Shown here: piece after piece, positions 1-4,978 of the stretch
Layout: each line of letters opens with the position of its first letter
Position numbering within the stretch: the stretch's first letter is position 1
NCBI GenBank assembly: GCA_947626815.1
Contig: CANQTN010000004.1
Coordinates: forward strand, 13,001 to 77,000
Length of the DNA: 64,000 bases
From: an uncultured Clostridia bacterium
Lineage (GTDB): Bacteria > Bacillota > Clostridia > TANB77 > CAG-508
Reading direction: 5' to 3'
The notes under the pieces: model-generated
Database searches by the model: none
Seen by the model: only the letters and a program-made list of their open reading frames with translations
Told to the model about the DNA's origin: nothing
Made by a program: the position numbers and the translations under genes

Positions 1-203
1 TAGAAACAGGACAAGCCTCAACATCATTTATACAAAGAAGATTTAAAGTAGGATATGCAAGAGCAGGAAGAATAATAGATCAAATGGAAGAAAGAGGAGT
101 AATATCTGGATATCAAGGAAGCAAACCAAGAGAAGTGCTAATGACATTAGAAAAATTAAATGAATTAAAAATGGGAACTAGTGAAAAGGAAGGAGTCTCA
201 TAA
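1..203 (+). CDS. ftsK: DNA translocase FtsK/SpoIIIE, C-terminal gamma (winged-helix) domain; 5' partial, runs off the window start
   Basis: Translation ...SFIQRRFKVGYARAGRIIDQMEERGVISGYQGSKPREVLMTLEKLNEL matches the FtsK gamma domain. Stop TAA at 201-203 overlaps the next ATG. Confidence 0.7.
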   Translation, partial: ETGQASTSFIQRRFKVGYARAGRIIDQMEERGVISGYQGSKPREVLMTLEKLNELKMGTSEKEGVS

Positions 204-661
204 TGAAAAAAGAATACAAAATGGCATTATCTGAGGTAAATACAATATTACAATATTCTGAAAATGAAATATTATTTAAAATACCACAAAAATTTATAAA
301 TTTCATACAAGAAAATATGGATACATCTTACAATTTTGAAATAGAAAAAAATAAAAGCTTAGTAGAACAAAATATGATGCAAGAAACAAAACAAATTTTA
401 GCATTAATTTATAGAGATTATCTGTGTTCAAAAGAACAAAAAGAAAATTTAATAGAAAAAGAACAAAAAGAAGCAGACAGAATAGAAAAAGAAAAAAGTG
501 AAAAATATAAAATTGATTTTGAAAAAATAAATAAAAATAGAAATACCAATATGTTAAATCAGACAAAAAATGAATGGACACTAGTAAAAATACAAAAAGA
601 AAAATGGTATAAAAAATTAATAAATAAAATATTGAAAATTTTTAAAATAAAAAATTTTTGA
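203..661 (+). CDS. small protein, family A (paralog of 51760-52116 and 59080-59535), unknown function
   Basis: 152 aa. Shares the block EVL-IL-YS...KIP..I.F.Q.N...Y.......K.L.E....ETK.I.A.IY..YLCS.E.K with the two other A copies. Sits immediately upstream of amidoligase-like gene 717-2871. Confidence 0.55.
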   Translation: MKKEYKMALSEVNTILQYSENEILFKIPQKFINFIQENMDTSYNFEIEKNKSLVEQNMMQETKQILALIYRDYLCSKEQKENLIEKEQKEADRIEKEKSEKYKIDFEKINKNRNTNMLNQTKNEWTLVKIQKEKWYKKLINKILKIFKIKNF

Positions 662-716
662 TTTACATATGCTAAAAATAAAAAGCACAGATAAAAGGAG
701 AATAATGTAAAAAAAT

Positions 717-2896: not shown

Positions 2897-3364
2897 ATGA
2901 AACCAATTATAGTAGTGGAAAATGGAGAAAAGTATGAATATAACGGAATAGAAGATATGGTAAAGGCAATTTTAGGTAAAGATTATTATAATTTACCAGA
3001 AAATGAAAAAATTAGCAAATTAAGGCTAAAAACATATATGAATGCTACTTTAAGAAATTTACCAATAAAAGATCTCATAAACGGAGAAAAAATAGAGGAA
3101 ATAGAGAAAAGTCAATATATCATACTTGACGAAATTACATTTTTACTATCACTTGCCAAAAACAATGATATTGTTATATATGAAAATGAAAATAGCGAAG
3201 AATTTGCAAATGGGATAGATAAAGAAAGACTTAAAAGAATTGCAGAAAATTATATAAGAATAAATGACTGTGCAAATGAAATATTAAAAAATAAAATTCA
3301 AGCAGATAAAATTCAAGCAAAAGGTCAAGATGAAGATAAGAAAGACCATGAAGAAAGAATGTAA
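2897..3364 (+). CDS. small protein, family B (paralog of 57093-57488), unknown function
   Basis: Start ATG 2897 behind RBS GGAAGG. Shares IVVENGEKYEYNGIEDMVKAI and YIILDEITFLLSLAKNNDIVIYEN with 57093-57488 (IVIEGEEKYQYNNIKSLIENFI, FILYDEITYILSMLKFNKIILLEK). Confidence 0.5.
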   Translation: MKPIIVVENGEKYEYNGIEDMVKAILGKDYYNLPENEKISKLRLKTYMNATLRNLPIKDLINGEKIEEIEKSQYIILDEITFLLSLAKNNDIVIYENENSEEFANGIDKERLKRIAENYIRINDCANEILKNKIQADKIQAKGQDEDKKDHEERM

Positions 3365-3379
3365 AATTTAAATTTACGT

Positions 3380-4978
3380 ATGCTAGAAAGGAGAGAAACA
3401 TTGCAAAAGAAAAAAGATAATTTTTTAGATAAAATTGTAAAAAAAGATTACAATAATGAATTAGAAAAAATTCTTGAAAAAAAGTATTTTGCAGAAAATG
3501 TAAAAAGTCTACTTCTTAGCATATTATATAAAATTGAAACAGCTTACAAAGATTACGAAAAAGTAAAACCTAATATACCAAGCAAAGAGGAATTTATAAA
3601 ATCAATTATTTTAAGTATAAAAAATAATTGTGATGACATAAAAGTAGTAAAAGTAAATTCAAGAGAAAGTGCAATGTTAGGAAATAAAACATTTTTAGTA
3701 GAAAAAGACAAAAAAAGAATTATATGTTATCCAATTGAAAGAAAATTATTGTATAGTATATCAAAAATAAATAAAAAAGAAAAAATTATTAAAGATAAAT
3801 ATTATATTATAGACAAAACCTTATCAGATTTAATAAATGTAGGTAATAATATTGATACAGTGGAGCCAATGAGAGACTTTAATGGATATTCATGGACTAC
3901 TATACCAAGAGAGATGGAAAGTATATATCATAATTTAGTATATCAAAATATACGAATTTTAGTAGGATATAGATTTCTAAATAACTGGATAACAAATAAT
4001 CAGTATATATTAGACTATATGGAAACATTTCAAAATAAATTAGAAGAAAAATATGGTGAAGAAAATAAAGAGCAATTAATAGAAACTTTGAAAAAATTGT
4101 CAGTACTATTGGCTGTTAAGTATAACAAAGAATTAAAACACGAACTTCGAAGAGAAAAAAAACAAACAGAAGAAAAATTTAACATAGTAAAAAATAATAA
4201 AACATTTATACAAACTGCAAGTAGGCAAAAGCAAATCTTAGAAAAAAGAATAAAAGAAATTGATGAAATGGTAAATGACAAGCGAAGATTACAAAATGAG
4301 TATGACAAAAGAAATTCACAATTACCATTAGAAGAAAAAATTTTTAGCATAAGAATCTTATCTAAAATATTACAAAAAGAAAGAGAAGATAAGCTAAAAA
4401 GGTTAGAAGAAATAAATTCAATATTAAACCCTCAAAAATTTGTCAAATTTAAAAATATTTTAGAGCAAAAAGAAAAATATCTAAAATTATTAGATACTCA
4501 AAATTTGGAATTAGAAATAGGCAAAAATATTATTAACTTACAAGAGATATTTTTACACTGCTATAAAATGAATGTAGCTAAAGTGGACAATAAGCAAGAT
4601 TTAATAAAGATGATTTATGAATTTAGATATTATTGTTTATTGCCAATAACTGATAAAAAATTAATAAATGAAATTGACATACTTTCTTCTTTAGTTAAAG
4701 AAGTACAAATGATATTATTAAAAAAAGCACATGAATTAAAAGTAATAGATACTATTAGTTCAGAAGAAAAAATAGATTACGAAATCTTAAAAAATATATT
4801 TAATGTTAGAGTAATTAATCTAGAGGACTTATATATTAAGGTTACAAAAGAAAAAGAAAAATATTATATGCAATTATTTGATGAAAATATTTTTGAAGAA
4901 AAAATAGAGATACAAGGAATAGGTAAGTTAAATAAAAAAGACTTAAAGATAAATAGAAAAATAAAAATTTTTAATTAG
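3380..4978 (+). CDS. hypothetical protein, Lys/Glu-rich, about 530 aa; start uncertain (TTG near 3401 possible)
   Basis: Long ORF with coding-like periodicity. I recognise no domain. Confidence 0.45.
   Translation: MLERRETLQKKKDNFLDKIVKKDYNNELEKILEKKYFAENVKSLLLSILYKIETAYKDYEKVKPNIPSKEEFIKSIILSIKNNCDDIKVVKVNSRESAMLGNKTFLVEKDKKRIICYPIERKLLYSISKINKKEKIIKDKYYIIDKTLSDLINVGNNIDTVEPMRDFNGYSWTTIPREMESIYHNLVYQNIRILVGYRFLNNWITNNQYILDYMETFQNKLEEKYGEENKEQLIETLKKLSVLLAVKYNKELKHELRREKKQTEEKFNIVKNNKTFIQTASRQKQILEKRIKEIDEMVNDKRRLQNEYDKRNSQLPLEEKIFSIRILSKILQKEREDKLKRLEEINSILNPQKFVKFKNILEQKEKYLKLLDTQNLELEIGKNIINLQEIFLHCYKMNVAKVDNKQDLIKMIYEFRYYCLLPITDKKLINEIDILSSLVKEVQMILLKKAHELKVIDTISSEEKIDYEILKNIFNVRVINLEDLYIKVTKEKEKYYMQLFDENIFEEKIEIQGIGKLNKKDLKINRKIKIFN

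Follow-up and report, generated by a model that had tools for sequence, protein, structure and literature searches.

Chromosomal cassettes pairing a repeat-bearing amidoligase or an M3B-like peptidase with shared small partner proteins in uncultured Clostridia

Introduction

Amidoligase_2 proteins belong, along with GCS2/YbdK enzymes and the Pup ligase PafA, to a clan of carboxylate-amine ligases that share the glutamine-synthetase-like fold. To our knowledge, no substrate has been defined for any member of Pfam Amidoligase_2; our literature search on the family name returned no functional study. Iyer et al. are said to have described, in 2009, contexts of this family borne by phages, plasmids, or integrative and conjugative elements (ICEs), with a class-II glutamine amidotransferase or a mobile-element partner. 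Here, we analyze a stretch of 64,000 nt from an uncultured Clostridia bacterium (assembly GCA_947626815.1, contig CANQTN010000004.1, positions 13,001 to 77,000; hereafter the window), which contains three cassettes where an Amidoligase_2 gene or a gene for an HExxH protein stands beside genes for small proteins of two families, A and B. A preliminary description, made from the sequence alone, had likened the layout of these cassettes to effector/immunity modules or to phage- or ICE-borne modules.

Enzymes encoded beside a small partner are otherwise familiar from toxin–immunity and toxin–antitoxin loci such as polymorphic toxins and epsilon/zeta systems, Zeta toxins being a bona fide toxin family. 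ATP-dependent protein-peptide ligases, namely the CDC123/R2K ATP-grasp families, are also described in bacterial conflict systems (PMC4431377). If the enzyme class and the enzyme-plus-small-partner logic are in this respect already known, novelty lies in the architecture of the repeat-bearing amidoligase, in its two orphan partner families, and in the cross-enzyme network reported below; our literature searches found no paper describing this repeat-amidoligase/A/B architecture, and public sources give the cassette proteins either no annotation or a generic name. What emerges is a compact and recurrent three- or four-gene Amidoligase_2 context with hundreds of members, in which ligase, peptidase, and kinase genes are joined through the same partner.

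Results

Three Cassettes, Each with an Enzyme and Its Own Small Partners

Together with their relatives in other genomes, the cassettes of the window form co-functional operons, each made of an enzyme and dedicated small partners, which are multi-copy, fast-evolving, and specific to a small-genome Clostridia lineage. The window holds exactly three of them: cassette 1 (203-4978) encodes a family-A protein, the ligase, a family-B protein, and a 532-aa protein (U532); cassette 2 (49738-52116) encodes a 670-aa HExxH protein, then a family-A protein; and cassette 3 (57093-59535) encodes B, the ligase, and A. Hidden Markov models (HMMs) of each family, run against every open reading frame (ORF) of the window down to E=10, detected no extra copies. 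The genes and their parts are as follows, with the evidence for each in brackets (TRF, Tandem Repeats Finder; AF2, AlphaFold2).

203-661, + strand: family A, cassette 1, 152 aa (family alignment, AF2 model)
717-2871, + strand: repeat-array Amidoligase_2 gene, cassette 1, frameshifted (ORFs 717-2189 and 2374-2871)
999-1740, + strand: acidic 25-aa repeat array, predicted HEAT-like, of the cassette-1 ligase, approximate extent (TRF, profile match)
1935-2510, + strand: catalytic domain of the cassette-1 ligase (invariant motif columns of the family alignment)
2897-3364, + strand: family B, cassette 1, 155 aa from ATG 2897 (ORF opens at 2837)
3380-4978, + strand: U532, 532 aa, fourth gene of the ligase-B-A-U532 subfamily (homologous ORFs in related loci)
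49738-51750, + strand: cassette-2 large protein, 670 aa (phmmer, C-domain profile; public gene call starts at 49750)
51760-52116, + strand: family A, cassette 2, 118 aa, without the long amphipathic tail (family alignment)
57093-57488, + strand: family B, cassette 3, 131 aa (pairwise homology, gene calls)
57534-59087, + strand: intact repeat-array Amidoligase_2 protein, cassette 3, 517 aa (Pfam 61 bits, TRF, 253 homologues)
57671-57891 and ~58026-58662, + strand: 26-aa repeats and catalytic domain, respectively, of the cassette-3 ligase (TRF, Pfam)
59080-59535, + strand: family A, cassette 3, 151 aa by the public gene call (ORF opens at TTG 59053)

This inventory agrees for the most part with the preliminary description, since the ORFs are present as described there and the A members, like the B members, are homologous to one another, as expected of paralogous cassettes. 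It departs from it in two respects. A start of cassette 2 at 49750 corresponds to the public gene call, but the ORF opens at 49738 and the large protein consists of two domains; and the gene set of cassette 1 was correctly given, but its ligase is read in two ORFs through a 1-nt frameshift that had been missed.

The Same Small Partners Accompany Several Enzyme Classes

A scan for the ligase in one-genome-per-species GTDB contigs returned 313 stretches, the best 77 loci of which, from ~74 metagenome-assembled genomes (MAGs), were analyzed by running the HMMs of the window proteins on all their ORFs. Nearly all of these MAGs bear the label of uncultured Clostridia or Clostridiales, and they come from rabbit, human gut, human mouth, and ruminants. 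These 77 loci hold 69 A, 55 B, and 18 U532 ORFs, and the A and B ORFs lie essentially all on the strand of the ligase, beside it or separated from it only by another cassette gene, with intergenic gaps that are tiny or genes that overlap. The preliminary description had left room for A and B being unlinked to the large genes elsewhere; instead, the linkage is tight across these species-level genomes.

Writing L for the ligase and U for U532, the gene orders found across loci include B-L-A, L-B-A(-U), A-L-B, and L-A. Two subfamilies can be distinguished, the ligases of B-L-A loci being 50-66% identical to that of cassette 3 and those of L-B-A-U loci 48-60% identical to that of cassette 1, whose own order, A-L-B-U, is a permutation of the L-B-A-U type. 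The swap of A and B around the ligase, rightly noticed before between cassette 1 (A-ligase-B) and cassette 3 (B-ligase-A), reflects two old subfamilies, B-L-A and L-B-A-U, and not a recent rearrangement.

Family A is not confined to ligases. A metagenome scan with the 670-aa protein of cassette 2 yielded 36 loci, and those with enough flanking sequence show family-A genes on one or both sides of stand-alone M3B-like peptidase genes. In the arrangement typified by locus L116, a P-loop kinase of the Zeta_toxin family (26.4 bits, cut-off 22.3) is followed by an A gene (103 aa), the M3B-like peptidase, and a different, second A gene (119 aa). This locus (2584-5548) and ~16 near-identical metagenome loci represent one widespread species, where the cassette lies downstream of rho and a PHP phosphoesterase gene, several small membrane-protein genes coming next. 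Other loci mix the components further: L130 brings together A, a fragmented ligase, and the peptidase within a single cassette, and L132, which lacks a ligase, encodes the peptidase, then an acidic helical-repeat protein of 309 aa, then B. Since A occurs beside ligase, peptidase, and kinase, and B beside the peptidase too, A and B are partners common to several enzyme classes, each enzyme gene having one A. Two large proteins in or near A cassettes of locus L050 suggest that further enzyme or effector types belong to this A-containing network: an A gene there stands behind an unrelated 423-aa protein with a proline-rich C-terminus (10-1281), and behind a ligase come two A genes and the gene for a helical-repeat protein of 833 aa (7888-10389) with an unassigned C-terminal domain.

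An apparent B-A fusion protein (P0234, locus L133 427-1314) was rejected as an artefact of a JGI gene call that read TGA as Trp; under table 11, the locus has separate B and A ORFs behind the 3' end of a ligase. Some pipelines evidently treat these low-GC MAGs as using genetic code 4.

Divergence, Copy Number, and Decay

A, B, and the catalytic domain of the ligase co-diverge across loci, and the rapid divergence of A and B proposed in the preliminary description is confirmed by the fact that cassette genes change much faster than the core genes flanking them. Indeed, between loci L014 and L003, members of the species complex with ~1.0-Mb scaffolds described below, the ligases are 59% and the B proteins 72% identical, against 96-99% for Tig, ClpP, ClpX, and LeuS. 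In the region upstream of the same B-L-A cassette, RsgA (60%) and a DUF6591 protein (51%) are also very divergent between these two loci; the stretch that evolves fast or recombines may extend beyond the cassette.

Genomes carry multiple paralogous cassettes, tandem ligase genes occur, and about 1 in 5 sampled ligase genes is split or truncated, that of window cassette 1 included. At the same time, in one widespread oral species with scaffolds of ~1.0 Mb, the B-L-A triad occupies a fixed site in many samples, with a DUF6591 gene on one side and, on the other, an aminoacyl-tRNA synthetase gene, probably leuS, after which come tig-clpP-clpX.

The Repeat-Bearing Ligase

The GCS2/YbdK-like ligase claimed by the preliminary description is borne out by profile comparison. 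The cassette-3 protein matches Pfam Amidoligase_2 (PF12224), of the same glutamine-synthetase-like clan, well above the cut-off (E=2e-16, 61 bits, cut-off 22), as well as the PHROG family “amidoligase enzyme” (7e-15). Taken alone, the C-terminal fragment of the cassette-1 ligase scores 21.7 bits against Amidoligase_2 (cut-off 22); after repair of its frameshift, this ligase is 44% identical to that of cassette 3 across the catalytic part. Relatives detectable in the protein collection number 253, and PF12224 is present in 120 of 120 homologues among the matches listed. The motifs GIEIE, GVExxSP, CGGHxHIG, and EFRxxNGT show no variation among 25 diverse homologues that were aligned, nor do residues E169, E171, E217, H254, H256, E356, and R358, whose catalytic assignment follows general knowledge of the glutamine-synthetase-like fold; the corresponding motifs of cassette 1 are GIEIEAEG (1935), GVEVVS (2034), CGGHVHIG (2142, at the frameshift), and EFRLSNGT (2431). 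With the catalytic motifs thus kept by the whole family, ligases that are intact probably have activity. Each would presumably be a cytosolic, ATP-dependent carboxylate-amine (amide-bond-forming) enzyme of glutamine-synthetase-like fold.

The acidic repeat array, also noticed previously, is visible in the DNA itself, with a TRF period of 75 nt (25 aa) at 1320-1558 in cassette 1 and of 78 nt (26 aa) at 57671-57891 in cassette 3; the clearest DNA repeats of cassette 1 span 1228-1561, with four copies at 75-nt spacing. The number of units varies widely across homologues, the lengths of which range from about 450 to 890 aa, and the N-terminal repeat region is acidic (mean net charge ~-14). Since the family profile matches designed alphaRep (HEAT-like) proteins in the PDB (E=1e-8 to 1e-4), the array is predicted to be a HEAT-like alpha-solenoid of tandem helical-hairpin repeats.

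In cassette 1, a frameshift of 1 nt in 'GATGCCGGAGGACAT', at ~2140-2154 and inside the CGGH motif, splits the ligase, and the removal of one C restores an uninterrupted 717-aa protein with every motif intact. As the identical frameshifted sequence is found in an independent public assembly (locus L084), we treat it as a real and recent inactivation rather than as an error of a single assembly, and the gene as a frameshifted pseudogene, both assemblies possibly sampling the same strain.

The Two-Domain Protein of Cassette 2

The 670-aa protein, searched with phmmer against 1.84 billion representative proteins, comprises an N-domain (residues 5-290) and a C-domain (290-625) with the motif HELSH...E, both of which were also found as stand-alone proteins. 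Within the C-domain, H142, E143, H146, and E163 are each kept by 90% or more of the 58 homologues, and E170 by all of them. The Pfam Peptidase_M3 model stays below threshold on the C-domain; the family profile matches PDB entry 2qr4, a Peptidase M3B oligoendopeptidase F, at 1.4e-7. The HExxH domain of the preliminary description can on this basis be refined to a predicted M3B-like (oligoendopeptidase-F-like) zincin. As for the N-domain, it is possibly GNAT-like, on a borderline signal: one homologue scores 20.1 bits, just short of the cut-off (20.7), and 2 of 23 members give matches.

Families A and B and the 532-aa Protein

The three A proteins of the window share 28-32% identity and 19 invariant columns, and they have 434 relatives in databases, all of ~150 aa and unannotated. 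In the AF2 model of the cassette-1 protein (predicted local distance difference test score, pLDDT, 77.7 overall and >84 over residues 1-100), a helical N-domain (1-116) leads through a disordered linker into a C-terminal helix, which is amphipathic and basic. Across the family, this helix has a hydrophobic moment of 0.58, versus 0.24 elsewhere in the protein, and a net charge of +4.7. The amphipathic tail occurs mostly on ligase-linked copies; that it is strictly specific to them was rejected on account of a peptidase-linked A in locus L096 that keeps the tail, the peptidase-linked sample being dominated by one species. In cassette 3, the A gene overlaps the 3' end of the ligase gene.

In family B, the two window proteins are 35% identical (E=4e-20), with 462 relatives in databases, all of ~132 aa and unannotated. 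The cassette-1 gene likely starts at ATG 2897, which corrects the ORF opening at 2837: this ATG is preceded by a GGAAGG Shine-Dalgarno-like motif and the family alignment begins there. The AF2 model of B (pLDDT 85.8; predicted template modelling score, pTM, 0.80) has an alpha/beta fold with a long C-terminal helix.

As stated in the preliminary description, neither family has a recognized domain. No credible match was obtained for the window A proteins or for B in Pfam, PHROGs, NCBIfam, and PADLOC, nor any reproducible PADLOC match among 42 A members; the family profiles of A and B retrieved nothing from the PDB, and Foldseek searches with either model retrieved nothing below E=1 in the PDB, the best BFVD match of B being non-significant (E=0.94). 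Weak matches of A to PADLOC PDC-S02 (E=1e-3, in 1 of the 42 members) and of B to SAUGI (E=1e-3), each confined to one family member, were treated as chance.

U532 is a basic protein (pI 9.3) with a central coiled-coil-like stretch. Its 18 homologous ORFs in related loci are all part of a ligase cassette and share its strand; in complete examples they come last. Across MAGs, U532 proteins are 38-54% identical, a higher conservation than that of A, B, or the ligase. Pfam, PHROGs, NCBIfam, and PADLOC gave no credible match for U532, a profile search of the PDB found no relative, and a PD-(D/E)xK nuclease reading was dropped because the candidate Asp is not conserved.

No signal peptide or transmembrane segment was found in the cassette proteins. 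With neither a Pfam trafficking domain nor a hydrophobic N-terminus among them, the earlier statement that they have no secretion domain stands.

Chromosomal Setting

The cassettes are chromosomal and non-viral in location. The GC content is ~25% and uniform throughout the window, nearly all genes are on the + strand, and the gene content is that of a bacterial chromosome, with an ftsK 3' end, tig-clpP-clpX, a two-component system, thyA-folA, and coaE. Around the cassettes themselves lie ftsK, an RNase-J-like gene, clpX, the two-component system, a radical-SAM gene, and thyA-folA. The tRNA and Rfam scans of the window were empty. The flank of cassette 1 is as follows.

1-202, + strand: housekeeping flank, 3' portion of the ftsK/spoIIIE gene with the gamma domain (seen in the sequence itself)

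Since no spacer separates the ftsK/spoIIIE stop codon from the ATG of the family-A gene in cassette 1 (1-205), this cassette may be co-transcribed or translationally coupled with ftsK. On the other side of this cassette, the metallo-beta-lactamase/beta-CASP (RNase-J-like) gene (5103-6687) is apparently split into overlapping ORFs (5103-5345 and 5323-6687), an apparent second frameshift of the window.

Behind cassette 2, a gap of 540 nt contains a nested inverted repeat of ~400 nt (52081-52497), which overlaps the final codons of the family-A gene and besides which the window has no other repeat of note. Its arms measure 50 nt (94% complementary), 77 nt (74%), and 33 nt (85%), and as RNA it would form one long hairpin (-162.7 kcal/mol, z=-16 vs shuffles). 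It could be a miniature inverted-repeat transposable element (MITE)-like element or a large terminator/regulatory hairpin.

Discussion

From a functional perspective, we tentatively favor the possibility that the cassettes are toxin/immunity-like enzyme modules with cognate small binding partners. Each cassette would be a co-transcribed, lineage-specific module of one enzyme and its own small binding partners, in which the acidic, variable-length HEAT-like solenoid in front of the ligase catalytic domain probably selects the target, family A (plus B in the case of the ligase) would bind the adjacent enzyme as a dedicated partner, and A and B would most likely restrain that enzyme, as immunity or antitoxin proteins restrain a toxic protein-modifying enzyme. 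On this view, the chromosomes of small-genome gut and oral Clostridia would be dotted with modules that act as fast-evolving conflict loci. We infer, rather than observe, the physical binding of A and B to the enzyme, its inhibition by them, the harm done by free enzyme, and the nature of what the enzyme ligates. This reading is suggested by the one small partner per enzyme, the tight translational coupling, the rapid co-divergence, the paralogy, and the decay, and by the fact that the same A family serves a Zeta_toxin-family kinase, a zincin peptidase, and an amidoligase. The existence of protein-peptide ligases in conflict systems (PMC4431377) supports it as well. In this regard, the effector/immunity half of the layout proposed in the preliminary description gains support from the kinase, the stand-alone peptidases, and the fast evolution of the cassettes. 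If the reading were correct, the cassettes would represent a class of amide-ligase toxins and a promiscuous immunity family in the small-genome human oral and gut microbiota.

Several observations nevertheless weigh against it. With secretion and trafficking domains, signal sequences, and transmembrane segments all absent from the cassette proteins, a delivered polymorphic toxin would have no visible export route. The N-domain of A is constant whatever the enzyme it accompanies, which is unusual for specific immunity proteins, even if promiscuous immunity superfamilies exist, SUKH being an example. SUKH is described as an immunity superfamily (PMC3113570). A preferential decay of ligases, the signature expected where immunity genes are retained, was looked for and rejected, the per-bp rates of ligases being similar to those of A and B. 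The B-L-A triad fixed in a ~1-Mb genome looks like a retained core function and not like a dispensable selfish module, and the toxin/immunity model leaves the roles of B and of the 532-aa protein unexplained.

The main rival explanation, which we hold to be rather unlikely, is a Pup-like tagging system, in which the ligase would be the writer, the M3B-like peptidase the eraser or processor, and A, B, or both the common substrate, tag, or adaptor, the HEAT-like repeats recruiting targets to which an amino acid or a peptide would be added through an amide bond. The fold class that the ligase shares with PafA, the cassette of L130 that combines ligase, peptidase, and A, and the recurrence of both A and B with ligase and peptidase genes are all consistent with this explanation, and the triad conserved at a fixed site in a ~1-Mb genome speaks for it too. 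Likewise, the disordered linker and the lysine-rich C-terminal helix of A (~+4.7) might offer an acceptor or a dock for the acidic repeats (~-14), and the ligase, the peptidase, the Zeta_toxin-family kinase, and the possible GNAT-like domain all belong to classes with protein-modifying members. However, the C-termini of A and B are variable, with no Gly-Gly-Gln/Glu-like terminus; two enzymes go with two different A genes, which a shared substrate would not need; divergence is very fast compared with core genes; pseudogenes are frequent; and the cassettes include no proteasome-like or unfoldase partner. A tagging role, if true, would amount to a new post-translational modification pathway in Firmicutes. 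The stronger proposal that ligase, M3B-like peptidase, and A/B together make up a previously unrecognized Firmicutes protein-tagging/editing system, an analogue of pupylation or of tubulin-type amino-acid ligation with two new folds, seems to us distinctly unlikely.

That the cassettes act in anti-phage defense, with the repeat array sensing a phage protein, the ligase or peptidase as effector, and A and B as regulators, appears improbable. The variable repeat number, the rapid diversification, the paralogy, and the variable chromosomal positions of the cassettes would fit this role, but no PADLOC family recurs, the PDC-S02 match being the sole and weak exception; no known defense genes were noticed near the loci that we read, in what was not a systematic search; and the cassettes encode no NTPase, nuclease, or other typical abortive-infection effector. 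The origin on a phage or ICE suggested by the other half of the preliminary layout fares worst of all. Amidoligase_2 Pfam and PHROG families are common in phages and the inverted repeat 3' of cassette 2 could recall a mobile element, yet among 2.9 million IMG/VR contigs the ligase profile found only 3 remote relatives (22-24% identity), and A and B had no matches. Moreover, no integrase or transposase ORF stands beside any window cassette (by ORF inspection of the flanks), no mobility genes were seen flanking cassettes in the window or in the other loci inspected, no deviation of GC was detected over the window cassettes, their flanks are housekeeping genes, and the window has no tRNA. Nor was a class-II glutamine amidotransferase or mobile-element partner found among the window cassette proteins, the scanned neighbors, and the Pfam families of flanking genes, the remaining loci having been searched only with the cassette HMMs. 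The view that the cassettes are cargo of a prophage, an ICE, or another mobile element is largely refuted by these observations, and we regard it as very improbable.

Set against described systems, the ligase resembles Amidoligase_2, GCS2/YbdK, and PafA enzymes in its catalytic domain, which lies above the Pfam cut-off and carries conserved acidic, His, and Arg motifs. It differs from known Amidoligase_2 contexts by a variable N-terminal array of 25/26-aa HEAT-like repeats and a conserved C-terminal extension of ~130 aa, as well as by its obligate linkage to A and B, its location in chromosomes of uncultured Clostridia, and the lack of an amidotransferase partner. The peptidase domain shares with M3B oligoendopeptidase F (PepF) the HExxH motif, the downstream Glu, and a C-terminal helical region that aligns to 2qr4, but it measures ~330 aa instead of ~600, has an unrelated N-domain as fusion partner, and is encoded beside family A. 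With pupylation (PafA, Dop, and Pup), the cassettes have in common a glutamine-synthetase-like ligase, a small and partly disordered protein, and sometimes a hydrolase in the same cassette; here, however, that hydrolase is M3B-like and predicted to be a zincin, and is no paralogue of the ligase, the small proteins contain folded domains and do not end in a conserved Gln/Glu, proteasome and Mpa are both lacking, and the hosts are Firmicutes, not Actinobacteria. Finally, unlike toxin–immunity and toxin–antitoxin systems such as polymorphic toxins and epsilon/zeta, the cassettes have no trafficking domain, comprise two partners (A and B) and sometimes a 530-aa protein in addition, and keep a fixed locus position within a species; none of their partners, A included where epsilon/zeta is concerned, matches an immunity or antitoxin protein known so far, whether by family or by fold, and only the L116 kinase matches Zeta_toxin. 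With these systems, they nonetheless share a small, coupled, and co-diversifying partner gene beside each enzyme, a single partner family that serves several enzyme classes, and multiple copies that diverge fast and are sometimes degraded.

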